The notes beneath the pieces were generated by a model. That model was given only the letters and a program-made list of their open reading frames with translations, searched no databases and was not told where the DNA came from. 64,000 nt of DNA from Acidimicrobiales bacterium (GTDB lineage Bacteria; Actinomycetota; Acidimicrobiia; Acidimicrobiales; Bog-793): positions 118,614 through 182,613 of the forward strand of contig JBEKBX010000002.1 in assembly GCA_050015175.1 (NCBI GenBank), read 5' to 3'. Below, in pieces: positions 26,268 through 52,564 of the stretch (positions are counted from its first letter, which is position 1; each line of letters opens with the position of its first letter). The translations under genes and the position numbers were made by a program.

Positions 26268-27695
26268 GTGAAGCGCTACCTGATCGGCATAGACAACGGG
26301 TCCCAGAGCACGAAGGTGTCTGTGTTCGACGAGCGTGGCACCGTGGTGTGCGAGGGGCGCCAGGCCCTCCGGCCAAATGACACGCCGCAGCCCGGCGTGG
26401 TGGAACACCCGGACGACGATCTCTGGTTCTCCATTGGCGAGGCGAGCCGCCAGGCCATGGCGGCGTTCCCGGGGGATGTCGCGGACATAGTCGGCGTGGG
26501 CCTGTGCACGATCCGTTTCTGCAGGGCGCTCCTCAAGGCCGACGGGACATTGGCCACTCCGGTGATGAGCTGGATGGACCGAAGAGTTTCCCGGCCCTAT
26601 GAGCACATCGACCCGAACGTGCGCTATGTGACGACGTCGTCGGGGTACATCAGCCACAGGATGACCGGTGAGTTCAAGGACACTGCCGCCAACTACGCGG
26701 GTGTGTGGCCGTTCAACGCGGACCGCTGGGAGTGGTTGCGCGACGACGAGGGCTTCTCGGACTACCAGGTGCCGCGCCAGATGCTCTTCGAGTTGCTGAT
26801 GCCGGGTGAGGTGCTGGGCTGCGTGACGCCCGAGGCGTCTCGTCACACCGGGATCCCGGCGGGGCTGCCAGTTGTCGCGACTTCCAACGACAAGGCCGTC
26901 GAGGCCCTCGGGTGCGGCCTGCGCTCGCCCGACACTCTCCTCGTCTCGTTGGGCACGTACACCGCGAGCATGACGACAGGAGAGCGCAACATACCGGACG
27001 CCAAGAGCTTCTGGTCCAATTTCGCCTCCATTCCGCATCAGTACCTGTACGAGAGCTACGGCATCCGCAGGGGCATGTGGACGGTCAGTTGGTGGCGGGA
27101 CCTGCTCGGCGAGGAGGCGAGGTCGGCAGCGGAGCGACAGGGACTGGGGGTCGAGCAGTATCTCGACCTCGAGGCAGAGAAGGTGCCACCCGGCTCGAAC
27201 GGCCTCATGGTGGTCCTCGACTGGCTCGCGCCGACGGAAGCCCCGTTCAAGAAAGGCTCGATCGTCGGCTTCGACGTCCGGCACGACCGGTTCCACATCT
27301 ACAGGGCCATACTCGAGGGAATCGCCCTGACGATCTACCGGTGTGGCACGGCGATGGGGGAAGAGACGGGGGAGATCTACAACCGGATAGTCGTCTCGGG
27401 CGGGGGATCGAACTCGGACGTGTTCATGCACATCTTCGCCGACGTCTTCGGGGTCCCGGCTGTTCGCAGCAAGATGAACAACGCCGCGGGGCTGGGCTCA
27501 GCGATCTGCGCCGCTGTCGGGCAGGGCGTTTACGGCTCGTGGGACGAAGCCATCGACAACATGGTGTCCTGGGAGCCGCCCTTCGCCCCGAACGCCAAGA
27601 ATCATGACCTGTACTTGCGGATGGCGGCTGTCTACGACGAGGTCCCGAGCCTCACGGACAAGATCTTCGAACGGTCCTACGAGATCTTCGGCTGA
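26268..27695 (+). CDS. FGGY-family carbohydrate kinase
   Basis: N-terminal YLIGIDNGSQSTKVSVFD plus FGGY N and C domains. GTG 26268 behind GGAGGCAGGA is preferred over TTG 26256. The 3-prime end overlaps the convergent ABC ATPase gene by 19 nt. Confidence 0.85.
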   Translation: MKRYLIGIDNGSQSTKVSVFDERGTVVCEGRQALRPNDTPQPGVVEHPDDDLWFSIGEASRQAMAAFPGDVADIVGVGLCTIRFCRALLKADGTLATPVMSWMDRRVSRPYEHIDPNVRYVTTSSGYISHRMTGEFKDTAANYAGVWPFNADRWEWLRDDEGFSDYQVPRQMLFELLMPGEVLGCVTPEASRHTGIPAGLPVVATSNDKAVEALGCGLRSPDTLLVSLGTYTASMTTGERNIPDAKSFWSNFASIPHQYLYESYGIRRGMWTVSWWRDLLGEEARSAAERQGLGVEQYLDLEAEKVPPGSNGLMVVLDWLAPTEAPFKKGSIVGFDVRHDRFHIYRAILEGIALTIYRCGTAMGEETGEIYNRIVVSGGGSNSDVFMHIFADVFGVPAVRSKMNNAAGLGSAICAAVGQGVYGSWDEAIDNMVSWEPPFAPNAKNHDLYLRMAAVYDEVPSLTDKIFERSYEIFG

Positions 27696-29761
27696 CCGGC
27701 TGTCTGGTCGGCGACCTCCGTTTGCGAGCTTCTCAGTTCGCCGATGGGGATGTGGCAACGCATCATGTGACCCGGCTCGACCTCGACGAGCGCGGGCTCG
27801 GTGGACTCGCACAACCCGTTCGCGAGGCGTCGCGGACAGCGCGTGTGGAACACGCACCCCGACGGCGAGTGCGCGGCGCTCGGGATCTCGCCCGTGAGCC
27901 GGATCCGCTCGCGGGACGTCCCGTCCAGGCTCGGCACCGCCGAGAGCAACGACTCGGTGTAAGGGTGATGGGGACCAGAGAAGACCGTCTCCGCCGACCC
28001 GTACTCCATCACGCGGCCCAGATAGAGCACCGCGATGCTGTCAGAGAGGTAGCGCACGACACCAAGATCGTGCGAGATGAAGACATAGGTGACTCGCTCA
28101 CGGCTTTGCAGGTCGGCGAGGAGATTGAGGATTGCCGCTTGCACAGAGACGTCGAGCGCCGAGGTCGGCTCGTCGCACACGAGGACCCGCGGAGACCCCG
28201 CGAAAGCGCGGGCGATGGCGACCCGTTGCTTGAGCCCCCCGGAGAGCTGGTAGGGGCGCAAGGGCAGGTGGCGCTCCTCCATGCGCACGGAGCGGACGAT
28301 CTCGAGAAGTCGTTGCTCGCACGCTTGGCCGGAGAGCCCGGCCAGCTTCTTGAGCGCCCTCGTGACGATGTGGCGCACGCTGTGGCGTCGGTTCAGCGCG
28401 GAGTCCGGGTTCTGGAAGATGATCTGCATCGCCTGCAACTGCTTGCGGTCGCGCTTGGTGCACTCGGGAGCGAGCGGCGAGCCTTCCAACTGGATGACGG
28501 ATCCCTCGTCGGGCACGCTCAGGCCGAGCAGCACGCGCGCGAGCGTCGTCTTGCCGGACCCCGACTCGCCGACGAGCCCGAGGGTCTCGCCTGGCTTGAG
28601 GTCGAGGTCGACACCCACGACGGCACGCACGTGCTCGCCGCGGACGTGGAACGTCTTCGACACGCCGCGCAAGCGGATCACCGGCTCTTCGCCCGGGTCG
28701 GGGATCTGCAGCTTGACGTCCTCCGGGGTTGCCCTGGGCAGCTCGGGCGCTCGTTCGTGGTAGTGACAGCGAGAGGTGCGTCCTGCGGCCACGTCGTACA
28801 TCGGCGGCGTCTCCTCGAGGCAACGCTGGTCCGCGATCGCACAACGCTTGGCGAAGATGCAGCCGACCTGGATCTCGCCCGGCCCGGGAAGGAAGCCCGG
28901 GATGGTGTCGAGGCGGCCGTGGTCCTTGCGCTGGCCGCGACGAGGCACGCAGCGCAGCAGCCCTACGGTGTAGGGGTGCCTGGGGTCGTCGAAGACCTCC
29001 CGTGCAGGACCCTGTTCTACGATCTCACCGGCGTACATGACCCCGACCCGGTCGCACATCTTCGCGATCACCGCGAGGTTGTGGCTGATGAAGAGCACTG
29101 AGGTCTGGAACTGTTGGCGCAGCGACGACACGAGGTCGAGGACCTCGGCCTCCACCGTGGCGTCGAGCGCGGTCGTGGGCTCGTCGAGTATGAGCAGCGA
29201 GGGCTCGGAGGCGAGCGCCATGGCGATCATGACTCGTTGCAGCATCCCGCCCGACAGCTGATGCGGGTAGGAGCGCAACACGCGCCCAGGATCCGCGATC
29301 TGCACGACGCGCAGCAGCTCCTCGGCGCGCGCCAAGGCTTCGGGCCTCCTTGTTCCGGCGATCTCGTACACCTCGGCCACCTGACGTCCCACCCGGAGCG
29401 ACGGGTTGAGGGCACGGCCGGGCTCTTGGTACACCATCGAGATCGTGCGAGCGCGGAACTTGCGCAGGGCGCGTTTGTCCATCTCGGAGGGGTCCTGCCC
29501 GTTGACCACGACCGTGCCCCCGCTGAGTCGACCGTTGCGCGGCAGGTAACGAGTGATGGCGAGGGCGGTGGTGGACTTGCCGCAGCCCGACTCGCCGACG
29601 AGCCCGAACGACTCCTGCCGTCCGATGCTGAACGAGACGTCGCGGAGAGCCAGTCGATCCTTGCCCCGCACTCGGTAGGCCACGTCGAGGTGGCTCACCT
29701 CGAGGGTCATGGGTGGTCTCTCCACCGTGGCGGCCTGGTCGGACGACGTTGTAAGGGTCAT
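27677..29761 (-). CDS. ABC transporter ATP-binding protein, fused double NBD (DppD-DppF type)
   Basis: Two Walker A sites ([18 protein letters not shown]) and two signatures ([16 protein letters not shown]). The ATG at 29761 overlaps the permease stop (ATGA); the ATG at 29710 is an alternative start. Confidence 0.9.
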
Positions 29762-30690
29762 TGGATCAGCACCGTCTCGATCGCGTCGCCGATGAGGTTT
29801 ATCGCGATGATGAGCGAAGCGATCGCGAGCGCCGGGAAGAGCGTCTCCCACCAGTAGCCGGCGGCGAGGTAATTGGAGTTGACGGCGATGTCGGCGCCCC
29901 AGTCCGGCGTGGGCAGCTGCACGCCGAAGCCGAGGAACGACAGCGTTGCGATCGTGAAGATGGCGTAGCCCAACCGGACGGTGAACTCAACGAGTATCGG
30001 GCCGAGCACGTTCGGGAGGATCTCGACGTACATGACGTGCAGGACGCTCTCGTCGCGTAACCGGGCCGCCGCGAGGTAGTCGAGCTCACGCTCCTGCAGG
30101 ACTGCGGTACGCACCGTCCTCGCGATGATCAGGGAGAAGACGAAGCCGATGACGACGATCAGAGTGAGCGTGCTGGGGCCGACTGCGACGACGAAGAGAA
30201 AGGCCACGATGACGATCGGAAGCGAAAGCGCCGCGTCCACGATCCTGCCGACGATCATGTCGAAGGCACCACGGAGGTAGCCCTGTGCAAGGCCGATCGT
30301 CGTTCCGACAACCGTGCCCAAGAGCGTGGCGAGAGGGGCGATCTCGAGGATGTCGCGGGCGCCGACGATCACACGGGACAACACGTCCTCGCCGACGTCG
30401 TTCGTCCCGAACCAGTGGGCGGCCGACGGCGCGAGCTGGGTGCTCAGAATGTTCGCCCCCGTCGCGTTGTAGGGAGCGAACGAGGGCCCGAAGATGGCGC
30501 AGACGATCCACCAGAGGAGGATGAGCGCGCCGATGATGAACGTCTTTGAGCGGACGAGCTGGTGAAGCTGCTCGCGGCGGACCTGCACGACGGACACATC
30601 GAGTGCGCCTGCGGCGCCGGCGGACGCGTCGGCCAGGGTTGCAGCCCCTCCGGCCACGGTAGGCGCGAGTGGGTCGATGGCCGCCGTCAT
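29758..30690 (-). CDS. ABC transporter permease (DppC-like)
   Basis: Track ORF trimmed to the ATG at 30690 (310 aa). It is polytopic with a BPD_transp_1-type layout. ATGA overlaps at both ends. Confidence 0.9.
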   Translation of the reverse strand: MTAAIDPLAPTVAGGAATLADASAGAAGALDVSVVQVRREQLHQLVRSKTFIIGALILLWWIVCAIFGPSFAPYNATGANILSTQLAPSAAHWFGTNDVGEDVLSRVIVGARDILEIAPLATLLGTVVGTTIGLAQGYLRGAFDMIVGRIVDAALSLPIVIVAFLFVVAVGPSTLTLIVVIGFVFSLIIARTVRTAVLQERELDYLAAARLRDESVLHVMYVEILPNVLGPILVEFTVRLGYAIFTIATLSFLGFGVQLPTPDWGADIAVNSNYLAAGYWWETLFPALAIASLIIAINLIGDAIETVLIQ

Positions 30691-31640
30691 TCCGCGTTCC
30701 CCAGCCTGATCCGCGGGTTCAACACCGTGTAGAGGATGTCGGCGATGAGCGTCGCGGCGAGGTAGACGATGCCGATGAAGAGAACTCCCGCTTCGAGAGT
30801 CGGGAAGTCCTTGTCGTTGGCGGCGTTGATGATCAAGGTGCCGATACCCGGGTAGACGAAGAGCTTCTCGACCACGACGAGCCCGCCGATGAGGTAACCG
30901 GTCTGTGTAGCGATGACCGTGATGGTTGGAAGCAACGAGTTGCGAAGCACGTGCCGCCGGATCACCACCCATCGGGGCAGCCCCTTCAAGGTGGCTGTGC
31001 GGACGTAATCGGAGTCGAGCGCCTCGATCGTGCCGGCCCGGGCCATTCGGGCTATGTAGCCGAAGAGGATGAACACGAGCGGGATGGCAGGCAGGATCAG
31101 GTACTTCAGCTGGACGAAGAACGACGAGCCGGGTGGAGCGTTGGCCGAGACCGGCAACAGCTTGAAGCCGAGGGCGAACACGACGATCAGAACGACGCCG
31201 GAGACGAACTCGGGCACCGTCGAGAGAGAGAGGCTCGTCGTGCTGATCAGACGGTCCACGAAGCTCCCTCGGTTGAGCGCCGCGATGATCCCGCCGAGGA
31301 TGCTGAGGGGTACGACTATGACGAAGGCGAAGGCCGCGAGCTTGAGGGAGCGACCGATGTACGGGAAGATGAAGGAGCTGACCGGTGCCTGTTGCTGGTA
31401 GGAGGTCCCGAGGTTGCCGTGCAGGATACCGGTGGCCCAGCTCCAGTACTGAACGAGGAGCGGCCGGTCGACTCCGAGCTTGTGGTCGAGCGTGATCACA
31501 GCCTGTTGCGAGGCGAAGGGTCCGAGGATGGCTCTGCCTGCGTTACCGGGGAGCACCTGACCGGCGAAGAAGATGATCATGCTCAAGAGCACGAGCGTGA
31601 TCAACGCCAAGCCGACACGCTTCAACACGTACAGCGGCAA
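30687..31640 (-). CDS. ABC transporter permease (DppB-like)
   Basis: 317 aa with a TTG start behind GGGAGGAGGG. The N-terminus MPLYVLKRVGLALITLVLLSMIIF is typical of DppB/OppB. Confidence 0.9.
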   Translation of the reverse strand: MPLYVLKRVGLALITLVLLSMIIFFAGQVLPGNAGRAILGPFASQQAVITLDHKLGVDRPLLVQYWSWATGILHGNLGTSYQQQAPVSSFIFPYIGRSLKLAAFAFVIVVPLSILGGIIAALNRGSFVDRLISTTSLSLSTVPEFVSGVVLIVVFALGFKLLPVSANAPPGSSFFVQLKYLILPAIPLVFILFGYIARMARAGTIEALDSDYVRTATLKGLPRWVVIRRHVLRNSLLPTITVIATQTGYLIGGLVVVEKLFVYPGIGTLIINAANDKDFPTLEAGVLFIGIVYLAATLIADILYTVLNPRIRLGNAE

Positions 31641-31980: not shown

Positions 31981-33354
31981 ATGCCCGCAGTAGACCTCTC
32001 CATCCTCGGGCGGGTCGTCAACGGCGTCAGCGCGCCGGTTCGCGGCGAGATCCGCGTTGCCGGGGGTCGCATCGTCGAGGTGCGCGAAGGCGAGCCTGCT
32101 TCCCTGTCGGCCACAAGGCTGATCGACGTCGGAACTGCCTATCTGCTCCCCGGCGGGATCGACTGCCACGTCCATTCGGGCAGCACCACGGCCGAGGGGA
32201 TCCGGGCTCTCACCGCGGCGGCGGCGGCCGGCGGCGTGACCACCGTGATCGACATGCCCTACGACGTGGCAGCACCGGTCGTGAGCCCGGAGATATTGGC
32301 CGCCAAACGCGCCAAGGTCCTGGCTGAAGCGCTTGTCGACGTGGCCCTCTTGGGCACGGTGCGCCCCGGGACCGGTGGCGTCGACGTCGGTCCGCTCGTC
32401 GAGGCCGGCGCGGTGGGCTTCAAACTCTCGCTGTTCGGCACTGACCCCCACCGGTTCCCGCGCATTCCAGACGACCAGTTCCTCGAAGTCCTCGCCGCGA
32501 TCCACGAGCACGGCAGCGTCGCGTGCGTGCACGCCGAGAACGAGGAGATAATCAAGCCCCTTCTGGCACGTGCCCGTGAATCGGGCGATGCCTCCCCGAT
32601 TGACCACTGCCGCTCGCGCCCGCCGGTGAGCGAGACCCAGGCGGTGCTGACGGCGCTCGAGTACGCCAGGGAGACAAAGGCTCCTCTCCACTTGTGCCAC
32701 CTGAGCCTCGCCCGCTCGGTGGACCTCGCCCGTTCGTATGCCGCAGAGGGCCTGCGGGTGAGCACGGAGACGTGCCCGCACTACCTGTGCTTCTCCGAGG
32801 ACGACATGGAGCGCCAACGTGGTCGCCTGAAGATAAACCCGCCCTTGCGCCCGGCCACCGAGGTGGCCCGGCTCTGGGAGCGTCTGTCGGGAGGGGGGAT
32901 CGACGTGGTTGCCTCGGACCATGCGCCCTGGCCACTGTCGGAAAAGACGCGACCGGCGATCTTCGACAATCACTCCGGGGCCCCGGGCACCGAGACACTT
33001 GTCACGGTGCTGGCTGCCGGGCTCCTCGACCGGGGCCAGGACCTCAACACGCTCCCGCACCTCGTTGCAGCGGCGCCCGCGCGTATCTTCGGGATCTCGC
33101 ACGTGAAAGGCTCTCTCATGCCCGGCATGGACGCCGACATCATGGCCTTCGACCCGGGCAGGCCATTCACCCTCGATGAGCGCCAACTGCACTCGAACGC
33201 GGGCTGGAGCCCTTATCACGGGATGGCTTTTCCCGGGCGGGTCATCCTAACGGTCTCGCGTGGAGAGGTGGTCTGGGACGGGTCGCAGCTCCACGGATCG
33301 CCGGGTCGCGGCCGTGTCGTGGAGCGTCCCCGGGGGGCACCACAAGGTGGCTGA
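31981..33354 (+). CDS. Cyclic amidohydrolase (hydantoinase/allantoinase/dihydroorotase family); candidate hydantoin-5-propionate hydrolase
   Basis: Trimmed to the ATG at 31981 (457 aa). It has LLPGGIDCHVH, GFKLSLFG, VHAENEE and VASDHAPW. Confidence 0.85.
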   Translation: MPAVDLSILGRVVNGVSAPVRGEIRVAGGRIVEVREGEPASLSATRLIDVGTAYLLPGGIDCHVHSGSTTAEGIRALTAAAAAGGVTTVIDMPYDVAAPVVSPEILAAKRAKVLAEALVDVALLGTVRPGTGGVDVGPLVEAGAVGFKLSLFGTDPHRFPRIPDDQFLEVLAAIHEHGSVACVHAENEEIIKPLLARARESGDASPIDHCRSRPPVSETQAVLTALEYARETKAPLHLCHLSLARSVDLARSYAAEGLRVSTETCPHYLCFSEDDMERQRGRLKINPPLRPATEVARLWERLSGGGIDVVASDHAPWPLSEKTRPAIFDNHSGAPGTETLVTVLAAGLLDRGQDLNTLPHLVAAAPARIFGISHVKGSLMPGMDADIMAFDPGRPFTLDERQLHSNAGWSPYHGMAFPGRVILTVSRGEVVWDGSQLHGSPGRGRVVERPRGAPQGG

Positions 33355-35005
33355 TCCGGACAGGCCCGCCGAGGTCACAGCTCAGCGCGGCCCTCTGCTC
33401 CGCTGCCGGGGGTGGCGCCAGGAGGGGCTTCTCCGGATGCTCGAGAACGTGCTGGAGATCGGCGAGCGTCCCGAAGACCTGGTCGTCTACGCGGCGCGTG
33501 GCAAGGCAGCCCGGGACTGGGAGTCGTACTCGAGGATCGTTCTGTCGCTCAAACGCCTCGGCGAGGACGAGACGCTCGTGGTGCAGTCCGGAAAGCCAGT
33601 CGCCGTCTTCCCCAGTTCGCCTGACGCCCCTCTCGTCGTGATGGCCTGCGGCAACGTGGTCGGCCACTACGCGACCGCGGAGTACTTCGACGAGTTGTGC
33701 GACCGCGGCCTCATCATGTGGGGCGGCCTGACTGCCGGAGACTGGCAGTACATCGGTTTCCAGGGCGTTCTCCAGGGCGTCTACGAACTCCTGCAGGCAG
33801 TTGCGAGGGACCATTTCGGCGGTTCGCTCGCCGGGAGGTTCGTCCTCACGGCCGGCCTCGGTGGCATGGGATCGGCGCAACCTCTCGCCATCTCGTTGGC
33901 GGGGGGCACTGGCATCGTGGTCGAGGTCGACCCGGACAAGTGCGCCCGCGCCCAGGCCCGCGGTCACCTCGCGTCGGTGACCGACGATGTGGAAGAGGCG
34001 CTCGCGTTTGCCGGCGACAGGGATGCGGGCAGGGTCATCGGACTCGTCGGCAACGCGGCGTCCGTCTACGAGGAGCTTTGCGACAGCGGCGTCGTGCCCG
34101 ACGTCGTCACCGACCTCACGGCCGCGCACGACGCGGTCTTCGGTTACTGCCCGGTCGACTACTCGCTCGAGGAGTGGAAAGCCGTTCGCGAGCTGGACCC
34201 GGCAGCCGTCGCAGACAGGGCGCGTCGTTCCATGGCCCTCCAGGTCCGGGCGATGCTGAAACTGAAGGCGCGCGGTGCCGTCGTTTTCGAGGACGGCAAC
34301 AACCTGCGCGTGCAGGCCGCCGCCGCCGGAGTCAGTGAAGCCTTCGAGATCGACGGGTTCGCGGAGAGGTACCTGAGGCCGCTGTTCTGCCGGGGAATCG
34401 GGCCGTTCCGCTGGTTGGCCCTGAGCGGTGAGCCCTCCGACCTCGCCGAGCTCGACAGCCTCGTGTGCGAGATGTCCTTCCGTCCCGAGGTGGAGTCCTG
34501 GATCTCACTCGCCCGGGAACACGTGGCGATGCAGGGACTGCCGGCACGGAGCTGCTGGCTCGGCCACGGGGAGCGTTCCAGGTTCGCCGTGGCCGTGAAC
34601 GGGCTTGTCCGGGACGGGCGGCTCGGCGGGCCGGTCGCCTTCACCCGGGACCACTTCGACTCGGGCGGGATGACCCATCCGCACATCGGGACCGAGGCGA
34701 TGGCGGACGGGTCGGATGCCATCTCCGACTGGCCGATACTCGACGCCCTCTTGTTAGCGGCCTCGGGCGCCGATCTCGTCGCAGTACACGCCGGAGGTGC
34801 AGGTTACGCGGGCTACATACAGTCGGCTGGCGTCACGATCGTCGCCGACGGCAGCGCGGGGGCGGGCGAGCGCCTCCGTCGCGGGCTCGACGCCGACAGC
34901 GGGCTCGGCGTTTTGCGCTATGCGGACGCCGGGTACGCCGATGCAGTGTCTGTGGCCGGCAGCGCCGGCCTCGGGCTCGGCCTTGAGCGGGAGGAGAAGA
35001 GATGA
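33347..35005 (+). CDS. Divergent urocanase-family hydratase; candidate thiourocanate hydratase
   Basis: GTG 33347 overlaps the upstream stop (GTGGCTGA). It is collinear with HutU (VQSGKPVAVF, GLGGMGSAQP, PLFCRGIGPFRW, GLPARSCWLG). It is altered at several blocks that are conserved in the canonical copy at 49264. Confidence 0.85.
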   Translation: MADPDRPAEVTAQRGPLLRCRGWRQEGLLRMLENVLEIGERPEDLVVYAARGKAARDWESYSRIVLSLKRLGEDETLVVQSGKPVAVFPSSPDAPLVVMACGNVVGHYATAEYFDELCDRGLIMWGGLTAGDWQYIGFQGVLQGVYELLQAVARDHFGGSLAGRFVLTAGLGGMGSAQPLAISLAGGTGIVVEVDPDKCARAQARGHLASVTDDVEEALAFAGDRDAGRVIGLVGNAASVYEELCDSGVVPDVVTDLTAAHDAVFGYCPVDYSLEEWKAVRELDPAAVADRARRSMALQVRAMLKLKARGAVVFEDGNNLRVQAAAAGVSEAFEIDGFAERYLRPLFCRGIGPFRWLALSGEPSDLAELDSLVCEMSFRPEVESWISLAREHVAMQGLPARSCWLGHGERSRFAVAVNGLVRDGRLGGPVAFTRDHFDSGGMTHPHIGTEAMADGSDAISDWPILDALLLAASGADLVAVHAGGAGYAGYIQSAGVTIVADGSAGAGERLRRGLDADSGLGVLRYADAGYADAVSVAGSAGLGLGLEREEKR

Positions 35006-36087
35006 CACGAGAGCTGACCGGAGACGACGCCCTCAACGCCGTGTGGGGCGGGTCGCTGCTGGCTTGCGGCGGAGGAGGATGGGTCGACCACGGCATGATG
35101 ATGGGCGAGCTCGCCACGCGGGTCGGCCGCCCTGTCCTCTGCTCGCCCGATGAGATAGCCGACTCTGATCTCGTCGTCACGGTCACCGCCATTGGCGCGC
35201 CGGCGTCGCCGAGCAGAGAGATCCGCCCGCTCGACTACGTGCGGGCGCTGCAGCTGGTGGCAGGTGAGACGGACCGCCCGGTCGTGGCAGTGATGACGGC
35301 CCAGAACGGCTCGTCGACAACGCTGAACGGCTGGATCCAGTCCGCCGTCCTCGGCGTGCGGGTGCTTGACGCCGCGGGAGACGTACGGGCGCATCCGACC
35401 GGCAAGCTCGGCGCGATGGGCCTTACCACCCGAGCCGGCTACGAGACCGTGCAGGCAGTCGCCGGCGGGAACCGTGAACTGAGCGGCGGCCTCGAGGTGG
35501 TCGTTCGTGGCCAGGTGATTGCGACCTCCGACGTCTTGCGCGATGTGTGCGTGCGCGCCGGCGGCTTCATCGCCGCGGCCCGTCATCCCGTGGAGGCGTC
35601 CTACGTGAAGCAACATGCCGCCCTCGGCGCCATCAGCTACGCCTTGTCGCTCGGGTCGGCCATGCGTGCCGCGCCTGACGCCGCGGCCGTCATCGACGCG
35701 GCGATCGCCGCGACCGGCGGAAGGGTCGTCGCAAGCGGTCCCGTCCGCGAGGTCGACCCGCTCCGGACCGCGGGCGGCTTCGACCACGGTTCGTTGTCGA
35801 TCGGCGGGTACGTCGTGCGATACCTGAACGAGTACATGACCGTGGACCTCGAGGGCTTGCGCGTCGCCACCTACCCCGACGTCATCGCCACCTTGTCGCT
35901 CGAGGACGGGCGGCCGATCTCAATTGCCGAGATGACCGAGGGCCGCGAGGCGGCGCTGTTCGTCGTTGACCAGTCCCTGTTGCCGCTCTCCTCCAGCACA
36001 CGCGACCGGTTCGCGCTCGAGGAGGTCGAGAAGATCATGGGTATCTCGCTGATCGGGCACGGGGTGCCCGCGACTCGGCCGTCGTGA
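35002..36087 (+). CDS. DUF917-family protein; candidate thiohydantoin desulfurase
   Basis: 361 aa with ATGA overlap to the upstream gene. N-terminal LNAVWGGSLLACGGGGW plus a two-domain DUF917-like layout. The family call is from memory. Confidence 0.75.
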   Translation: MTRELTGDDALNAVWGGSLLACGGGGWVDHGMMMGELATRVGRPVLCSPDEIADSDLVVTVTAIGAPASPSREIRPLDYVRALQLVAGETDRPVVAVMTAQNGSSTTLNGWIQSAVLGVRVLDAAGDVRAHPTGKLGAMGLTTRAGYETVQAVAGGNRELSGGLEVVVRGQVIATSDVLRDVCVRAGGFIAAARHPVEASYVKQHAALGAISYALSLGSAMRAAPDAAAVIDAAIAATGGRVVASGPVREVDPLRTAGGFDHGSLSIGGYVVRYLNEYMTVDLEGLRVATYPDVIATLSLEDGRPISIAEMTEGREAALFVVDQSLLPLSSSTRDRFALEEVEKIMGISLIGHGVPATRPS

Positions 36088-37355
36088 GCCGACTGCCGTC
36101 GCCTCACCTCGGGCGAGTCTCGGACGACTTCGAGACCCTCGCATCATACCGGGACCCGGAGGCCCCGGGCTGGACGCGTCGTGTCTTCTCCGGCTTCGAC
36201 AGTGCCGGGAGAGCCTGGGTCGCCGGGAGGATGGAGGAGGCGGGCCTGACAGTCGAGACCGACGCGGCGGCCAACCTCATCGGGAGATTGCCCGGCACCG
36301 CTTCGTTGCCCGGCGCGATCGTGACCGGTTCGCACACCGACACCGTGCACGGAGGGGGCCGTTTCGACGGCATCGTCGGGGTGCTCGGCGCCCTCGAGGC
36401 GGTCCGCTGCCTGCGCGAGGCACGGACCGAGCTCGAGCACGACCTCATCGTGGTCGACTTTCTCGGTGAGGAGCCGAACGACTTCGGCTTGAGCTGCGTG
36501 GGAAGCCGCGCGATATCCGGCGCGCTCGACGAGGGTCACCTCGCTCTTGTGGGCCCGGAGGGGCTCAGTCTCGCCGAGGCGCTCGCGGCCTGCGGCGGGC
36601 GACCGTCCGCGCTCGAAGGCGCGCGCTGGCCGAACGGCCTGCACTGCTACGTCGAGCTGCACATAGAGCAGGGCCCGGTGCTCGAAGCCGCACGGGGCCC
36701 GATAGGAGTGGTGACAGGCATCGTCGGCATCCACCGGCTCCTTGCGAGCATCGTCGGGCAGCCGGATCATGCCGGCACAACCCCGATGAGCCTCCGCCGG
36801 GATGCGCTCCTGGGAGCGGCAGAGGCTGCGCTCGCCATAGAGAGGCTCGCCGAGGGAGGTGTGGCGACGACGGGCCGTCTCGAGATCCGGCCCGGCGCCC
36901 ACAACGTGGTACCCGGAGAGGCCGACCTGTGGGCCGAGGCGCGAAGTGCCGACGAGGAATGGCTGGACGACTTCGGGCGCAGGGTCACCGAAGAGATCAG
37001 TGCCATCGGCGCCCGGCGGCACCTCGGCACGACCCTCAGCTGGATCTCGCGCGAGCGTCCAGTGACGGTCACGGACTGGGTGGCGGCCGCCATCGGGGAG
37101 GCGGCACGGTCTTTCGGGATCGAGCCCCTCAACATTCCGAGCGGCGCCGGTCACGACGCGTCCCACATGGCGCGTCTTGGTCCGATGGGCATGGTTTTCG
37201 TGCCGTCCCGGGCCGGGCGGAGCCACTGCCCGGAGGAGTGGACGGACCTGGAGGATATCGGTCGTGGCATCGCCGTCCTAGCGGAGACGTTGGTAATTTG
37301 TGATCACCGAGAGGAGGCGCGCCAGGGGAGGCGGCGCCGCGGGTCAGATGACTGA
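36084..37355 (+). CDS. M20-family N-carbamoyl-L-amino-acid / allantoate amidohydrolase
   Basis: 423 aa with GTGA overlap to the upstream gene. It has TGSHTDTVHGGGRFDGIVGV, ELHIEQGPVLE, PDHAGTTPM and SGAGHDA. Confidence 0.85.
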   Translation: MSRLPSPHLGRVSDDFETLASYRDPEAPGWTRRVFSGFDSAGRAWVAGRMEEAGLTVETDAAANLIGRLPGTASLPGAIVTGSHTDTVHGGGRFDGIVGVLGALEAVRCLREARTELEHDLIVVDFLGEEPNDFGLSCVGSRAISGALDEGHLALVGPEGLSLAEALAACGGRPSALEGARWPNGLHCYVELHIEQGPVLEAARGPIGVVTGIVGIHRLLASIVGQPDHAGTTPMSLRRDALLGAAEAALAIERLAEGGVATTGRLEIRPGAHNVVPGEADLWAEARSADEEWLDDFGRRVTEEISAIGARRHLGTTLSWISRERPVTVTDWVAAAIGEAARSFGIEPLNIPSGAGHDASHMARLGPMGMVFVPSRAGRSHCPEEWTDLEDIGRGIAVLAETLVICDHREEARQGRRRRGSDD

Positions 37356-38931
37356 GCGACTTGTCGAGCTGACCGGAGACGACCTGAGCGTGCAGGATGT
37401 CGTCGCGGTTGCACGCGGTCGGACCCGGGTCGCTCTTTCCGCCGAAGCGCTCCGGCGGATGCGCCAGGCTCGCGATGTCGTCGACGCGATACTCGCGAGC
37501 GGCGAGCCGGTGTACGGCCTCAATACCGGGCTCGGCTCGTTCGCCCGTTTCCGGATTCCGATCGAGCAGATCAAGCGCTTCTCGTTTGACACCGTGGCCG
37601 ACCTGAGCTCGTCCTACGGCCGGCCGCTGCCCGCTGACGTCGTGCGGGCGATGATGGTGGCCCGGGCGAACGGCATGGCCAAAGCCGGCGTCGGCGTGAG
37701 GTGTGAGCTGGCGCAACTGCTCGTCGAGCTCTTGAACCGGGACGTCGATCCGGTGGTGAGGGAGATCGGCTCGGTCGGCCAGGGCGACCTGTCGGAGATG
37801 TCCGACATCGGCAAGGTGCTGATCGGCATCGGGCACGCCGAGGTCGGCGGCGAGGTGATGAGCGGGCGGGCGGCATTGGCACGAGTCGGGCTGGAGCCGA
37901 TCGAGCTCGCCCCGAAGGAGGCGCTCGCGCTGATCAGCGCCAACGGAGTCACCCTCGGACGGGGCGCCCTCGTGCTGCACGACGTCGCGGACCTCGTCGA
38001 CCTGCTGCAGGCGGCGGCCGCATTGTCGCTCGAGGGCTTCGCAGGCAATCTCTCGATCATCCATCCCGGCACGAGCGAGCTCCAGCCTCAGGTCGGGCCC
38101 AGTACGGCCGCCGACCGGCTGCGCCACATGCTCGAGGGCTCCTACCTGTGGGAACCGGGCGCGGCGCGCAACCTGCAAGATCCGCTTTCGTTCCGCTGCG
38201 TGCCCCGCAGCCACGGTGCGCTCTACGACGCTCTCCACTACTCGCGCTTCAACCTCGAGAGCGAGTTGAACGCGGCCAATGACAATCCGCTCGTGCTCGT
38301 CGGCGAGGGAGTGATCGTCTCGGGCGGCAGCTTCGACGTGGTGGGGCTCGCCATGGCCTTCGACCTGTTGCGCCTCGCCATAGCGAACGCCGTCAAGGGC
38401 ACCAACGAGCGCGTGCAGAAGCTGCTGTGGAACCACTTCAGCGGCCTGCCGAGCGCGCTTGCCTTCGACCAGGGACCCACCAACGGCCTCAAGCCGATGG
38501 GCCGCTGGTGTGCGGCGCTCGCAGCCGAGGCGCGCTCGCTCGCCGGACCCGTGACACTCGACTACGCAGGGCAGGTAGCCGAGGGTGTCGAGGACGACGC
38601 CAGCATGGCCCCGCTCTCGGTGCGCCGGACCCACGAGCTCGTCTCGCTCGTCCACCGCACTGTGGTCTACGAGCTCATAGTGGCCGCCCAGGCGGTCGAC
38701 ATGCGGGAGCGGTGGCCAATTGGGCGCGGGACCACCGTCGTGTACCGGGCCGTGCGCGACCACGTGCCGATGCTGCGCGACGTCCGTGGTTGGGACCCGG
38801 ACATCGAGGGTCTCGTCGAAGCCGTCGCCCAGGGCGAGCTCGGCGCCCGGATAGCCGCCGCGATCGGCGGACGTAAGCAGGAGCCGCGAGTACTGATGGG
38901 GGTGCGCACACCGGACGCGCCCGAGCACTAG
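37348..38931 (+). CDS. HAL/PAL-family ammonia-lyase homologue lacking the MIO-forming Ala-Ser-Gly; candidate ergothionase-type betaine lyase
   Basis: ATG 37348 overlaps the upstream stop (ATGACTGA). It has YGLNTGLGSFA, NDNPLV and QDPLSFRC. The MIO position reads GSVGQGDLSEM instead of GSVGASGDLAPL. Confidence 0.85.
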   Translation: MTERLVELTGDDLSVQDVVAVARGRTRVALSAEALRRMRQARDVVDAILASGEPVYGLNTGLGSFARFRIPIEQIKRFSFDTVADLSSSYGRPLPADVVRAMMVARANGMAKAGVGVRCELAQLLVELLNRDVDPVVREIGSVGQGDLSEMSDIGKVLIGIGHAEVGGEVMSGRAALARVGLEPIELAPKEALALISANGVTLGRGALVLHDVADLVDLLQAAAALSLEGFAGNLSIIHPGTSELQPQVGPSTAADRLRHMLEGSYLWEPGAARNLQDPLSFRCVPRSHGALYDALHYSRFNLESELNAANDNPLVLVGEGVIVSGGSFDVVGLAMAFDLLRLAIANAVKGTNERVQKLLWNHFSGLPSALAFDQGPTNGLKPMGRWCAALAAEARSLAGPVTLDYAGQVAEGVEDDASMAPLSVRRTHELVSLVHRTVVYELIVAAQAVDMRERWPIGRGTTVVYRAVRDHVPMLRDVRGWDPDIEGLVEAVAQGELGARIAAAIGGRKQEPRVLMGVRTPDAPEH

Positions 38932-41296: not shown

Positions 41297-42517
41297 TCAA
41301 GTGAAGACGTAAGCGTCCGGCTCTTCGAGCTCGGTGTCCAAGCCCGCGAGCTCGATCGCGTCCGGTACCCGGACGGATTCGAACTTGTCCAGGATCTTGA
41401 GGATGACCCAGGTGAGGATGAACGCGTAGGCAGCCACGAGCAGGCCGGCAGCCACCTGCTTGCCGAAGAGCGAGGGATTGCCCTGGACGAGGCCGTTGTG
41501 GCCGGCCAGGTTGACCGATTCGTAGGCGAAGACGCCCACCAGCATCGAACCGAGGAGCCCGCCGATGCCGTGCGCAGCCCAAACATCGAGTGCGTCGTCC
41601 CACTTCATGTGGCGCACCAAGGCGACGGCCGCGTAGCAGATGGATCCGGCGAGCAGACCGATCGCGAAAGACGCCCATGTGGGCACGAAACCGGCGCACG
41701 GCGTCACACAGGCGAGGCCTGCCACCGCTCCCGTGAAGGCTCCCACGATGCTGGGCTTTCCCGTCCTCCACCAGGAGATGGCCAACCACGTGCACATCGC
41801 GACCGACGCGGCGATGTCGGTGTTGACGAAGGCCTGCGCCGCCACGGCGTCGGCCGCGAGCGCCGAGCCGCCGTTGAAGCCGAACCAGCCGAACCAGAGC
41901 AATCCGGTCCCGAGTCCGACGAAGGCCACATTGTGCGGGACCTTCTTCTCGCCCGGTGCGAACTTCCTGGACCCGACGACGAACACCGACGCCAGGGCCG
42001 CAAACCCCGCACTCGTGTGGACGACCATTCCACCGGCGAAGTCCTCGACACCCCAGTGCTGGAGGAACCCGCCACCCCAGATCCAGTGCACTATCGGCAC
42101 GTAGACGAGCAGGCTCCAGACGACCAGGAACTTGAGGTAGCTCTTGAACGCGATCCGGTCGGCGAAGGCACCGGTGATGAGCGCCGGGGTGATGATGGCG
42201 AACATCTCCTGGAAGATGAAGTGTGCCAGAGCGGGGATATGGGGGGCATACGGGCCCGGCGACGCGCCTACTCCTCGCAGTCCTGCCCACGAGAGGTTGC
42301 CTATGACACCTCCGAGGTTGCCGGAGAAGGCGAGGGAGTACCCGACGAGCACCCAGAGCACGGTGACTACTCCCATCGAGATGAAGCTCTGCAGCATTAT
42401 TGTGAGAAAATTCTTTCTTCTCACAAGGCCGCCATAGAAAAACGCCAGGCCTGGTGTCATCACCATGACAAGTGCGGCGCTGATCAGAACAAACCCGGTG
42501 TCACCGTCGTTGATCAC
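41297..42517 (-). CDS. amt: Ammonium transporter
   Basis: 406 aa with a GTG start behind AAAGGAGG. It has TPGLAFFYGGLVR, VEDFAGGMVVHTSAGFAAL and AAHGIGG. Confidence 0.95.
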   Translation of the reverse strand: MINDGDTGFVLISAALVMVMTPGLAFFYGGLVRRKNFLTIMLQSFISMGVVTVLWVLVGYSLAFSGNLGGVIGNLSWAGLRGVGASPGPYAPHIPALAHFIFQEMFAIITPALITGAFADRIAFKSYLKFLVVWSLLVYVPIVHWIWGGGFLQHWGVEDFAGGMVVHTSAGFAALASVFVVGSRKFAPGEKKVPHNVAFVGLGTGLLWFGWFGFNGGSALAADAVAAQAFVNTDIAASVAMCTWLAISWWRTGKPSIVGAFTGAVAGLACVTPCAGFVPTWASFAIGLLAGSICYAAVALVRHMKWDDALDVWAAHGIGGLLGSMLVGVFAYESVNLAGHNGLVQGNPSLFGKQVAAGLLVAAYAFILTWVILKILDKFESVRVPDAIELAGLDTELEEPDAYVFT

Positions 42518-43087: not shown

Positions 43088-43445
43088 TCGTCTACTTCCT
43101 AAGAGGACCTCGGACCGAGAACGGCGGCGTGGCGACTCTCCAAATCACCCCGCGTCAGTGAAGCACAGCATCATTCTGCCCTGTCGGGCAAGACGTGCTC
43201 GCAATGGTCCGGCTCGTTGCCGGCTCCAGCGGGTGCGGGGCTTCTTGCCCGGCCGGGAGGCGGGCTATGGGCGTTCAGATCCGTGACGCTAGAGTGAAAC
43301 CGACGTCGCGCTACACGACCCCGAGGAGCCTGTTGGTACCTGCTCAAGAGTGATCGAGCGTGCGGGCCATATCGCTTCGACGCCTTCTGGGCGCGGGCCG
43401 CTGGTTCAACACCGAAGTCGATGGTTACCGAAAAGGAGATCTGAC

Positions 43446-45143
43446 ATGGCCATGCCGAGCGACCTTGAGATCGCGCGCCAGGCTCACCTCAAGCCGATTG
43501 CCGAAATCGCGAAGGGTATGGGAATCGAACCGCGGATGCTCGAGCACTACGGCGAGAATGTTGCGAAGATCAAGCTGGACGCTATCGCCGAACTCGCCGA
43601 CCGCCCCAAGGCCAAGTACGTGGTCGTCTCCGCGATCACGCCGACGCCGCTCGGCGAGGGGAAGACGACGACGATCGTGGGGCTCGGCCAAGCCATGCAC
43701 CACATCGGCAAGAGCGCGACGATCTCGATTCGTCAGCCCTCTATGGGTCCCACGTTCGGCATCAAGGGTGGCGCTGCCGGTGGTGGCTACAGCCAGGCCG
43801 TCCCGATGGAATCCTTCAACCTCCACCTGACAGGGGACATGCACGCGGTGACGGCCGCGCACAACATGCTGTCGGCCATGGTCGACAACCACTTGCAAAA
43901 GGGCAACGAGCTCAAGATCGACCTGCACAACATCACTTGGAGACGCGTGCTTGACGTGAACGACCGAGCGCTCCGCAACATCGTGATAGGGCTCGGGACC
44001 AAACAGGACGGCGTCCCGCGCCAGACCGGCTTCGACATCACCGCCGCGTCTGAGGTGATGGCCATCCTCGCGCTGTCGGCGTCCTTAAAGGACATGCGGG
44101 CCCGCCTGGGAAGGATCGTCGTGGGTTACACCGATGACGGCGAGCCGGTGACCTCGGAGGACTTGAAGGGCGCAGGGGCGATGACCGTGATCATGCGCGA
44201 GGCCATCAAGCCGAACCTGCTCCAGACGATCGAGAACACCCCGGTGATAGTGCACGCTGGACCGTTCGGCAACATCGCCCACGGCAACTCGTCGATCGTC
44301 GGTGACTTGATCGGTATCCACACCGGCGACTTTCTCCTCACCGAGGCGGGCTTCGGCGCCGACATGGGAGCAGAGCGCTTCTTCGACATCAAGTGCCGCA
44401 CCTCGGGCCTCAAGCCCGATGCCGCCGTGGTCGTCGCCACGGTGCGCGCACTGAAGGTGCATTCCGGGCGGCACAAGGTCGCAGCCGGGCGCCCGCTGCC
44501 TCCCGCCATCTTGGAGGAGAACCCTGAAGAGGTTCATCTAGGCGGGGCGAACCTGCGCAAGCAGATCGAGAACATCCAGGTCTTCGGCGTCTCGCCTGTC
44601 GTCGCGATCAACGCATTCCCCGGCGACTTCCCCTCTGAGCACGAGGCGGTCCGTGAGATCGCGGCCTCGATGGGAGTCCGAGCGGCGGTGTGCACCAATT
44701 TCGCCGAGGGCGGCAAGGGAGCCACCGAGCTCGCGCAGGCGGTGGTCGAAGCGGCGGACGAACCGAGCGACTTCCGTTTGCTCTACCCGAACGAGGCGAC
44801 GTTGCGCGAGAAGATCGAGACGGTGGCCTCGAAGATCTACGGCGCCGCCGGCGTCGACTACCTGCCGGTCGCGAACCGCCAGATCGACTCCTACGAGAAG
44901 AACGGCTATGGGAACCTTCCGGTCATCATCGCCAAGACGCACCTGTCCTTGTCGTCGGACCCCTCGCTGAAGGGTGCGCCCACTGGGTGGCGCATGCCGG
45001 TGCGAGAGGCGCGTGCCTCGATCGGTGCGGGTTTCGTGTACCTCATCTGTGGCGACATGAGCACGATGCCGGGGTTGTCGACGCACCCGGCGGCCGAGAT
45101 CATCGACATCGACGAGAACGGCGAGATTGTCGGGCTCAGCTGA
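43446..45143 (+). CDS. fhs: Formate--tetrahydrofolate ligase
   Basis: Trimmed to the ATG at 43446 behind AAAGGAGA (565 aa). It has SDLEIARQA, TPTPLGEGKTTT and end-to-end Fhs collinearity. Confidence 0.95.
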   Translation: MAMPSDLEIARQAHLKPIAEIAKGMGIEPRMLEHYGENVAKIKLDAIAELADRPKAKYVVVSAITPTPLGEGKTTTIVGLGQAMHHIGKSATISIRQPSMGPTFGIKGGAAGGGYSQAVPMESFNLHLTGDMHAVTAAHNMLSAMVDNHLQKGNELKIDLHNITWRRVLDVNDRALRNIVIGLGTKQDGVPRQTGFDITAASEVMAILALSASLKDMRARLGRIVVGYTDDGEPVTSEDLKGAGAMTVIMREAIKPNLLQTIENTPVIVHAGPFGNIAHGNSSIVGDLIGIHTGDFLLTEAGFGADMGAERFFDIKCRTSGLKPDAAVVVATVRALKVHSGRHKVAAGRPLPPAILEENPEEVHLGGANLRKQIENIQVFGVSPVVAINAFPGDFPSEHEAVREIAASMGVRAAVCTNFAEGGKGATELAQAVVEAADEPSDFRLLYPNEATLREKIETVASKIYGAAGVDYLPVANRQIDSYEKNGYGNLPVIIAKTHLSLSSDPSLKGAPTGWRMPVREARASIGAGFVYLICGDMSTMPGLSTHPAAEIIDIDENGEIVGLS

Positions 45144-45741
45144 CGCGCCGGCATATCTCGAGGTCGGTCTCGGGAGCTTCCTCGAGCTCGTCTCCGCGGC
45201 CGAGCCGGCGCCTGGCGGCGGGTCGGCCGCAGCCGTAGCCGTCGGGCTGGCCGCGGGACTCTGCGTGATGGCGGCGCGTTTGTCCACGCGGCAGCTGCCG
45301 GACGCGCCGGACCTAGCACTCGCTGCCGCGCGGCTGCGCGATCGTGCCGCTGCACTCTGCCAGGCAGACGCAGAGGCCTACGGACTGGTCGTGTCGGCAT
45401 CCCACGAACCTTGTGGGCCTGACCCCGAGGGTCGCCGGCGCCGGATAGCCGCGGCCCTCTTGGTGGCGACCGACGTTCCATTGCAGGTCGTGGAGACGGG
45501 GGCCGGCGTCGCCGGTCTGGCCGCCAGGATCGCCGAGTACGGGAACCCGAATCTGCTGGGTGACGCCGTCACCGCGGCGTTGCTGGCGGAGTCCGGAGCG
45601 AGGGCGGCGGCCGCTCTCGCGCTGATCAACCTCAAAGGACTGCAGGACGACGACAGGCGGAACCGGATCGCCAAGCTGATCGAGGAGGCCGCAGACAGTG
45701 CCTCCATCGCGCGGCGCCTGTCGGACCAACTCTCGTCCTGA
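45127..45741 (+). CDS. Cyclodeaminase/cyclohydrolase-family protein (FTCD C-terminal domain type)
   Basis: 204 aa. It has PAPGGGSAAAVAVGLAAGLCVMAARL and NLLGDAVTAALLAESGARAA. The TTG start overlaps the fhs end; the start is uncertain. Confidence 0.7.
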   Translation: MSGSADAPAYLEVGLGSFLELVSAAEPAPGGGSAAAVAVGLAAGLCVMAARLSTRQLPDAPDLALAAARLRDRAAALCQADAEAYGLVVSASHEPCGPDPEGRRRRIAAALLVATDVPLQVVETGAGVAGLAARIAEYGNPNLLGDAVTAALLAESGARAAAALALINLKGLQDDDRRNRIAKLIEEAADSASIARRLSDQLSS

Positions 45742-47464: not shown

Positions 47465-47822
47465 CTCGAGCGATGCGACGGAAGAGACAGTTTCGAGAAG
47501 CCTGGGTTGGGCGAGCCGGTTCGTAGGTACAGGCCGTTCCCTTGGAGCCAAACAGCGGCAAAGGTATTCAGTGCTTCGTCACGCCCTGAGTGCCTGCGTT
47601 TGCTTGTGGTCGCGGCCACGATCTGATACAACGAACTCAGCACGCGTGAATTCGTTGGAATCAGTCATATAGCGGCGAAGGTTCCTCGTTCCCAGTAGAG
47701 GTGAGGTGCAGGGGACGCGCCGGACCTTTGACTCCTCACCGGGTGTGGGCACGCGGGCGAAAAGTTGCTTGTCACCGTCTTGCCTATCCGCGTCCAGCGT
47801 CGACGACAGGAGGCGGTGTGTA

Positions 47823-52154: not shown

Positions 52155-52564
52155 CCGCCCGGGAAGTAACCGTCATCGGTTGCCGGGGCGCGGCGCCGGG
52201 CAAGGCGACCGGCCCGGCCGTCGTGTCAACCGACGCCATCTGCTTCTATCTGGTGGACCCACCCACGGGAACCGTCATCGAGTCCGGTCACGCCATCGAG
52301 GGCAGGAGAATCGCCGGGACCGTCCTCGTCTGTCCTGGAGGAAAGGGGAGCTCGGTGGTCCAGGCCGACGGTCTCTACCAGCTTGCCAAGGCCGGCACGG
52401 CACCGGTCGCCGTCGTCGTCGCGGAGTTCGACACCGTGCTCGTGGCGAGCGCCGTGGTCGTCGGCGTTCCACTCGTGCGCTGCGCCCCCGAGGACTTCGC
52501 ACGCATCAGCGACGGTGACGTGCTGGACGTGGACTCCGACCGGGAAGTCGTCACGATCCGGTGA
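52151..52564 (+). CDS. Aconitase X swivel (small) subunit, DUF126
   Basis: 137 aa with ATGA overlap to the upstream gene. It shows the DUF126 pattern GKATGPAVVS, VLVCPGGKGSSVV, GTAPVAVVVAE and GVPLV. Confidence 0.85.
   Translation: MTAREVTVIGCRGAAPGKATGPAVVSTDAICFYLVDPPTGTVIESGHAIEGRRIAGTVLVCPGGKGSSVVQADGLYQLAKAGTAPVAVVVAEFDTVLVASAVVVGVPLVRCAPEDFARISDGDVLDVDSDREVVTIR

Follow-up and report, generated by a model that had tools for sequence, protein, structure and literature searches.

The 64,000-nucleotide stretch analysed here (the window) comes from an Acidimicrobiales bacterium (Actinomycetota; GenBank assembly GCA_050015175.1, contig JBEKBX010000002.1, positions 118,614 to 182,613). It encodes a 527-amino-acid lyase of the histidine ammonia-lyase (HAL) family that lacks the Ala-Ser-Gly triad at the site of the 4-methylideneimidazole-5-one (MIO) cofactor. 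This protein is probably a cytoplasmic, MIO-independent ergothionase (ErtA) with the antioxidant ergothioneine as its physiological substrate. The features from which we draw this reading were observed directly: the sequence of the lyase, the similarity of its predicted fold to that of a known ergothionase, its membership of a MIO-less clade, the structure of the operon that it closes and the conservation of that operon across genomes.

The MIO triad is missing from an intact lyase gene

The ertA-like gene, encoding a MIO-less PF00221 lyase and predicted ergothionase, extends from an ATG at 37348 to 38931 on the plus strand. Its third-position GC of 0.87 shows a strong bias (the whole window has 66.7% G+C). 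Pfam PF00221 covers the product end to end (429 bits, profile positions 1-465 of 466), and the product is identical to a public protein (P0001) named 'MAG: aromatic amino acid ammonia-lyase [Acidimicrobiales bacterium]', MAG standing for metagenome-assembled genome. At the site where HAL carries the motif G-S-V-G-A-S-G-D-L, the codons ggc tcg gtc ggc cag ggc gac ctg (37768..37791, plus strand), in frame with the coding sequence, specify the loop G141-S-V-G-Q-G-D-L148. A MAFFT alignment of 144 sequences sets G-SVGQ-GDLSE of the lyase against G-SLGASGDLAP of MIO-bearing relatives, that is, one residue fewer and no Ala-Ser-Gly. Loop and deletion are thus as described in the original prediction, which had been made from the letters of the DNA, and the three family blocks that it listed as retained (YGLNTGLGSFA, QDPLSFRC and NDNPLV) are all present in the translation.

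The possibility that a frameshift or sequencing error hides the triad, raised together with that prediction, was examined and rejected. Neither of the other two frames encodes Ala-Ser-Gly at the loop site, and one of them contains stop codons. Gene calls give the identical 527-amino-acid protein on at least 24 contigs of independent assembly, four of which belong to four separate ENA assemblies and carry the same neighbouring genes. Related genomes were surveyed with one genome per species, which gave 324 genomes with a relative of the lyase, and all counts of species genomes and loci below refer to the best 80 of these 324. The loop could be parsed in 76 of the 80 and reads GSVGQG in 73 and GSVGQS, GSVGQA and GSVGHG in one each, always at the same length. 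Given the intact PF00221 frame, the identical contigs and the conservation of the loop in orthologues, the deletion is real and not an error.

Searching the 64-kb window with the lyase by tblastn returned only the lyase itself (the next match had E = 0.11), so no second HAL-family gene was found there. The sole ASGD[LI] peptide in the six frames of the window sits in an unrelated context. Both searches agree with the earlier statement that the window holds no canonical hutH.

The lyase groups with ergothionase and other MIO-less proteins

Among proteins of known structure, the best sequence match of the lyase is the ergothionase of Treponema denticola (6S7J, 238 bits), and HALs score at most 215 bits. 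In the phmmer alignment the loop SSIGEGDI of 6S7J pairs without gaps with GSVGQGDL of the lyase, the two being of the same length. The comparison with HAL and ergothionase sequences that the original prediction had proposed therefore places the lyase with 6S7J both by its shortened loop and by overall match. An AlphaFold2 model of the lyase (mean pLDDT, the predicted local distance difference test, 82) was used for fold ranking only. Its first structural match is again 6S7J (TM, template modelling score, 0.93; root mean square deviation 2.8 Å), followed by the HAL of Pseudomonas putida, 1B8F (TM 0.89). The hutH equivalog TIGR01225 scores the lyase at 358.7 bits, under its cutoff of 539.15. No ergothionase model appeared among the NCBIfam matches of the lyase, and this accounts for the generic names that it bears in public databases.

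A phmmer scan of 1.84 billion cluster representatives identified 9,508 relatives of the lyase at E values up to 0.001. Two clusters are at least 50% identical to it and the next is 45% identical. A family tree was built by neighbour-joining with 100 bootstraps from 136 near-full-length representatives together with the T. denticola ergothionase and one HAL, after the loop columns had been deleted. The Ala-Ser-Gly triad is missing from 102 near-full-length homologues in this set, and all 102, including the lyase and the T. denticola ergothionase, were split from the 33 MIO-bearing proteins in 100 of 100 bootstraps. Since the split is recovered without the loop columns, the lyase belongs to a MIO-less lineage independently of the motif. 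The leaf order of a midpoint-rooted neighbour-joining tree had suggested two separate MIO-less groups; this was discarded, as the bootstrapped tree gives a single MIO-less clade.

Active site residues

Roles of individual residues were taken from two preprints (bioRxiv 10.64898/2026.04.22.720169 and 10.1101/2025.08.13.670108). The tyrosine that abstracts the beta-proton in ergothionase (10.64898/2026.04.22.720169) has its equivalent in Tyr56 (37513..37515, plus strand, as are all codons given here), which corresponds to Tyr54 of the T. denticola enzyme and Tyr53 of HAL and is invariant in our alignment A1. The block Q277-D-P-L-S-F-R283 (38176..38196), also invariant and identical in the T. denticola ergothionase, is predicted to supply the carboxylate-binding Gln and Arg, and the conserved Asn313 of the D-N-P block (38284..38286) is predicted by alignment to be the carboxylate-binding Asn. 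The imidazole-binding Glu would be the first residue of Glu415-Asp-Asp (38590..38598), a motif that reads E-D-H in HAL and in the T. denticola ergothionase and E-D-D in the subclade of the lyase. In the alignments all five residues (Tyr56, Gln277, Arg283, Asn313 and Glu415) are kept in the lyase.

At two other positions the pocket departs from that of the characterised enzyme. Leu86 (37603..37605) occupies the column where the imidazole-binding His stands (His84 in T. denticola, His83 in HAL); a gapless pairwise alignment with P0121, the nearest outgroup cluster (47% identity to the lyase), likewise sets this Leu opposite a His. In 67 parsed orthologues position 86 is Gln in 60 and Leu in seven. 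The column of Lys384 of the T. denticola ergothionase holds Arg386 (38503..38505) in both the phmmer and the MAFFT alignments; it is invariant in A1, and all 61 orthologues parsed at this column have Arg. Lys384 binds the ergothioneine thiolate and is reported to be essential, and a positive residue at this position sets ergothionases apart from lyases of sulfur-free betaines, which have Asn or Gln: Asn in the hercynine lyase Swoo_3913 and Gln in the N-pi-methyl-hercynine lyase SO_3299 (both preprints).

The motif after the ring-binding Glu varies little. E-D-H is near-universal (61 parsed orthologues), and E-D-D (Asp417, 38596-38598) occurs in the lyase and in 10 of 73 parsed orthologues. Among the few sequences inspected for both positions, the lyase combines Leu86 with E-D-D, and its closest relative (P0010) combines Leu86 with E-D-E.

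Across the MIO-less clusters among the protein representatives P0121-P0268 the thiolate-binding column is Lys in 41, Arg in 14, Tyr in 12, His in 10, Ile in seven and Val in four, with other residues in the remainder. About 100 MIO-less HAL-homologue clusters with more than ten different residues at this position suggest that the family includes many uncharacterised betaine lyases, and most of the pocket types, for which no enzyme has been characterised, may represent many betaine or other MIO-independent lyases. One MIO-less lyase of Lys/Arg type (P0131) lies on a 12-kb contig (L089) that carries two PF00221 lyase genes, one inside an OpuAC-type betaine ABC (ATP-binding cassette) operon with ornithine cyclodeaminase and the other beside a gene for a BCCT betaine transporter. 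This 12-kb contig carries no ert genes. Its context fits betaine substrates and points to a different downstream route. For three other pocket types (P0123, P0151 and P0170) the contigs are too short to show gene neighbourhoods.

The lyase gene closes a predicted ert operon

The lyase gene is the last of five same-strand genes in the order ertD-B-C-E-A. Junctions overlap by 4 nucleotides at ertB/ertC, 4 at ertC/ertE and 8 at ertE/ertA, and a gap of 82 nucleotides separates ertD from the called start of ertB, which was taken from gene calls on identical contigs. A scan for promoters and terminators gave nothing above the shuffled expectation.

For all four partner genes the top NCBIfam model is an ergothioneine-pathway model. 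The ertD-like gene (31981..33354, plus strand) encodes a predicted hydantoin-5-propionate amidohydrolase, for which NF058538 is the best of 45 amidohydrolase models (421 bits, cutoff 600). The ertB-like gene (33437..35005, plus strand) encodes a urocanase paralogue and predicted thiourocanate hydratase that scores 748 bits on NF058530 (cutoff 930), 701 bits on the S-methyl variant NF058531 and 651 bits on hutU, whose cutoff of 375 it passes. The ertC-like gene (35002..36087, plus strand) encodes a protein of the thiohydantoin desulfurase family (PF06032/PF20906) that matches NF058529 over its full length (385.5 bits, cutoff 440), as against 265 bits on the S-methyl variant model; no solved homologue of it was found. 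The product of ertE (36084..37355, plus strand), a predicted N-carbamyl-L-glutamate amidohydrolase of the M20 family, lies over its cutoff (NF058540, 530 bits against 520). These four functions are the steps that follow ergothionase in the five-step pathway of Beliaeva et al. 2021, as that work is cited in PMC12922746.

A second urocanase gene in the window (49264-50943) provides an internal control, because the two urocanases have opposite preferences for models and structures. The second urocanase reaches 902 bits on hutU as against 668 on the thiourocanate model, and in the PDB it matches canonical urocanases at 831 bits, with 7ned as its lowest bacterial match (570 bits). The operon urocanase finds its best PDB match in 7ned (611 bits); canonical urocanases reach at most 541 bits and 8q9u/8q9v 493.

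The operon is conserved in soil Actinomycetota

The best 80 species genomes are all MAGs of uncultured, mostly soil Actinomycetota and include Acidimicrobiales, Gaiellales/Thermoleophilia, Solirubrobacterales, Pseudonocardia and Rubrobacter. Homologues of ErtD lie no more than 10 kb from the lyase in 72 of the 80, homologues of ErtB in 70, of ErtC in 66 and of an ErtE-like protein in 55. Two arrangements were seen: the genes are co-directional in the order D-B-C-E-A in Acidimicrobiales, and in Solirubrobacterales/Thermoleophilia the lyase gene is divergent from the other ert genes.

The outgroup cluster P0121, which has Arg at the 384 column and His at the 84 column, heads a further operon that encodes, in A-B-C-D-E order, a lyase, a urocanase, an S-Me-THD protein, an amidohydrolase, an M20 protein and a transporter of the major facilitator superfamily (MFS). 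Three of its products lie over the equivalog cutoffs (ErtC 447 bits against 440, ErtD 766 against 600, ErtE 555 against 520), and its ErtB scores 899 bits against a cutoff of 930 and 808 bits to 7ned. Because the ert operon that an Arg-type lyase partners here qualifies by the standards of NCBI itself, Arg386 is a plausible stand-in for Lys384. A search for annotated ert clusters in a plasmid collection returned mostly hutH; the two MIO-less-like matches that were examined have neither annotation nor Ert neighbours.

Predicted function of the lyase and alternative explanations

The claim that the protein is a betaine-type, ergothionase-like lyase and not HutH is supported by its sequence and fold match to 6S7J, by the hutH score under the cutoff, by the bootstrapped split and by the ert operon. 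In the following scheme the substrate, all catalytic activities and the part played by Arg386 are predictions. The lyase would bind ergothioneine, with Gln277, Arg283 and Asn313 holding the carboxylate, Glu415 contacting the ring and Arg386 pairing with the thiolate in place of the Treponema Lys384. Tyr56 would then remove the beta-proton, and trimethylammonium would leave without the help of an electrophilic cofactor, yielding trimethylamine and thiourocanate. ErtB would hydrate thiourocanate, ErtC would take the sulfur off as H2S to give hydantoin-5-propionate, ErtD would open the ring to N-carbamyl-glutamate, and ErtE would release glutamate, CO2 and NH3. MIO forms from Ala-Ser-Gly, and ergothionase needs no MIO because trimethylamine is a better leaving group (bioRxiv 10.64898/2026.04.22.720169 and 10.1101/2025.08.13.670108); the quaternary ammonium leaves readily by itself, so that no electrophilic assistance is needed (10.1101/2025.08.13.670108). 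The chemistry assumed in the original prediction, with MIO derived from Ala-Ser-Gly and an ergothionase independent of it, agrees with both preprints.

Several observations weigh against this assignment. Lys384, reported to be essential in the Treponema enzyme, is Arg in the lyase, so that the charge is kept and the residue is changed, and the ring-binding His84 is replaced by Leu, or by Gln in most of the clade. The 41 Lys-type proteins, which have Lys at the Lys384 column and include the T. denticola ergothionase, form a group that leaves the clade of the lyase out in 70 of 100 bootstraps, where the group was scored as a MIO-free group with at least 85% of the Lys-type proteins. By sequence the lyase is accordingly placed in a clade of soil Actinomycetota outside the characterised Lys384 group. 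In the AlphaFold2 model pLDDT falls below 50 at residues 57-68, 87-89 and 142-146, exactly in the active-site loops. ErtB, ErtC and ErtD of the operon all remain under the NCBIfam equivalog cutoffs. We take 7ned to be the structure of a thiourocanate hydratase; its depositors name it only 'urocanate hydratase'.

Because Arg386 and Leu86 differ from the T. denticola enzyme, the choice between ergothioneine and a close analogue rests on operon context, and it is likewise the operon context that favours ergothioneine over hercynine. We regard it as unlikely, yet worth keeping in view, that the clade with Arg386 and Gln or Leu at position 86, which extends to at least 324 species-level genomes, is a distinct MIO-less branch that recognises the 2-thioimidazole ring differently, or that its substrate is another histidine-derived betaine (selenoneine, S-methyl-ergothioneine or hercynine) with unrecognised uptake by the Opp-type ABC and MFS transporters.

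One form of such a departure, which we consider improbable, is that the lyase acts on a 2-substituted analogue (S-methyl-ergothioneine, ergothioneine sulfonate or selenoneine), with Arg386 and Leu86 reflecting the substituent at C2 and the downstream enzymes processing the matching urocanate analogue. The pocket does depart from the characterised ergothionase at both the ring and the thiolate contacts, ErtB scores nearly equally on the S-methyl and thiourocanate models and is under both cutoffs, and an ergothioneine-sulfonate pathway is reported in the literature, as far as an entry in a reference list indicates. However, ErtC clearly prefers the thiohydantoin desulfurase model to the S-methyl one, the closest solved relative of ErtB is 7ned and not 8q9u/8q9v, and the operon of the Arg-type sister P0121 passes the ErtC, ErtD and ErtE cutoffs. 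A cationic residue at position 384 also suits a thiolate better than a thioether.

There is little probability that the lyase is a hercynine (histidine betaine) trimethylamine-lyase that feeds urocanate to HutU, HutI and FtcD in place of an absent HutH. This would account for hutU, hutI and ftcD occurring in the window without hutH, the MIO-less family does include a hercynine lyase (bioRxiv 10.1101/2025.08.13.670108), and with the imidazole-binding His missing the mode of ring binding is uncertain. Yet the lyase gene overlaps ertE and stands in an operon with ErtB/C/D/E-like genes and not with hutU, and a substrate without sulfur would leave the desulfurase ErtC with nothing to do. The known hercynine and N-pi-methyl-hercynine lyases are periplasmic enzymes coupled to flavocytochrome reductases and have an uncharged residue, Asn or Gln, at position 384, whereas the lyase has Arg, its N-terminus (MTERLVELTG) starts directly at the catalytic domain without a signal peptide, and no reductase is encoded nearby. 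The absence of hutH, moreover, covers the 64-kb window and cannot show that the gene is absent from the genome.

A decayed or dead histidine ammonia-lyase without its former cofactor motif, or an artefact of assembly, is hardly credible: public annotation as 'histidine ammonia-lyase' or 'aromatic amino acid ammonia-lyase' speaks for this reading, but the gene has an unbroken reading frame from end to end, its sequence is identical in many independent assemblies, 102 MIO-less clusters and 324 species genomes contain relatives with the same loop length and the catalytic residues kept, and the gene linkage is conserved.

Neighbouring genes

Divergent from ertD lies a gene set for an Opp/Dpp-type ABC importer (27677..31640, minus strand; Pfam and gene calls), a candidate uptake system made up of two permeases (30687-31640 and 29758-30690) and a fused double ATPase (27677-29710). 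In 45 of the 80 species loci, homologues of oppB/oppC lie no farther than 10 kb from the lyase. No binding-protein gene adjoins the importer; the only family-5 solute-binding protein of the window (19328-21049, minus strand) is encoded about 6.6 kb away. EgtU, the bacterial importer known for ergothioneine, belongs to another, OpuA-like type, and the Opp/Dpp-type importer could be an unrecognised ergothioneine uptake system.

A second candidate transporter, of the MFS (PF07690; 39005..40243, minus strand), is convergent with ertA and is kept beside the lyase in Acidimicrobiales only (10 of 80 loci). No homology was found between it and the MFS protein of the P0121 operon, and a common transporter family can therefore not be claimed. 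A LysR-family gene (PF00126, PF03466; 40357..41286, plus strand) is a candidate regulator of the cluster and also co-occurs in 10 of 80 loci.

The LysR gene is adjoined by a gene for an Amt ammonium transporter (41297-42517, minus strand), downstream of ertA. On a near-identical contig (L001, 13965-15554) Amt is called with 529 amino acids, compared with 406 elsewhere, a discrepancy that suggests an assembly or strain difference at the 5' end. A link between Amt and the ammonia or trimethylamine that the pathway would release is a matter of speculation.

Canonical genes for histidine utilisation are dispersed over the plus strand of the window: hutU (the second urocanase, 49264-50943; TIGR01228, 902 bits), hutI (9483-10664; TIGR01224, 363 bits) and ftcD for glutamate formimidoyltransferase-cyclodeaminase (46016-47464). 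With them are genes for a formate-tetrahydrofolate ligase (43350-45143), an FchA-like cyclohydrolase (45127-45741) and an NCS1 permease (47706-49259). In related Acidimicrobiales loci the block of ftcD and the formate-tetrahydrofolate ligase gene remains at a distance of at most about 10 kb from the ert operon. The stretch right after hutU (50940-53862, plus strand) encodes the large subunit of an aconitase-X (AcnX, PF04412), a small subunit (DUF126, 52151-52564) and an isomerase of 'group 22' with a predicted nickel-pincer cofactor (LarA-like; NF052515, 460 bits). Together the three are similar to dehydratase and racemase modules of the hydroxyproline type.

Comparison with known systems

With the ergothionase of T. 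denticola (6S7J/6S7Q) the lyase shares the HAL fold, the shortened loop without Ala-Ser-Gly, the catalytic Tyr, the ring-binding Glu, the carboxylate blocks Q-D-P-L-S-F-R-C and D-N-P and, at position 384, a positively charged residue. The two proteins are about 30% identical and fall in separate subclades, with Lys384 replaced by Arg386, His84 by Leu86 and E-D-H by E-D-D. Further ergothionases listed with the T. denticola enzyme are those of Burkholderia sp. HME13 and Shewanella oneidensis (SO_3057). Most ergothionases are cytoplasmic, and the lyase is predicted to be cytoplasmic too.

HutH (TIGR01225; P. putida HAL 1B8F) belongs to the same Pfam family, has the same fold and about 31% identity with the lyase, and the residue numbers of Tyr, Gln277 and Arg283 nearly coincide in the two. 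The lyase differs from it in having no Ala-Ser-Gly, a loop shorter by one residue, a replacement of His83, a score of 359 bits where 539 are required, and no linkage to hutU/hutI.

Swoo_3913 of Shewanella woodyi, which acts on histidine betaine, and SO_3299, which acts on N-pi-methyl-histidine-betaine, also belong to this family, lack MIO and eliminate trimethylamine from a histidine betaine. They have Asn or Gln at position 384, periplasmic signal peptides and urocanate-type respiratory reductases, whereas the lyase has Arg, no signal peptide and a hydrolytic catabolic operon, its neighbours being hydrolases and transporters.

All five functions of the ErtA-E pathway (Beliaeva, Leisinger and Seebeck 2021; Muramatsu et al.; NCBIfam NF058529, NF058530, NF058538 and NF058540) are predicted to be encoded here in one operon. 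The differences lie in the gene order D-B-C-E-A, in the divergent lyase gene of Solirubrobacterales, in the scores of ErtB, ErtC and ErtD under their cutoffs, and in the associated transporters, which are of the Opp-type ABC and MFS kinds and not of the EgtU type.

Implications

The lyase, wrongly annotated so far, belongs to an enzyme class that is already known; it is no novel type of enzyme. Ergothionase activity, its gene, the MIO-free mechanism, a crystal structure and the five-step pathway have all been published, and our understanding of the chemistry, already established, is unchanged. What is new is modest: a mis-annotated actinobacterial clade, delineated by sequence comparison, with a predicted pocket of Arg and Leu or Gln, and its wide spread in soil MAGs. 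About 2,000 detectable relatives in public databases are named 'histidine ammonia-lyase' or 'aromatic amino acid ammonia-lyase'. A recent survey described ergothionase as confined to a few genera, with BLAST returning only HAL-like names (PMC13405746). The wide distribution in soil MAGs contradicts this claim of rarity, which was based on database names.

A predicted complete ert operon with a MIO-less lyase is widespread in uncultured soil Acidimicrobiales, Thermoleophilia and Solirubrobacterales, and this corrects the annotation. Actinomycetota and fungi make ergothioneine in soils, and the distribution of the operon suggests that ergothioneine is a common source of nitrogen, carbon and sulfur, and a source of trimethylamine, in this environment. 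The exchange of Lys for Arg and of His for Leu or Gln in the lyases of this clade provides a natural test of which pocket residues matter.

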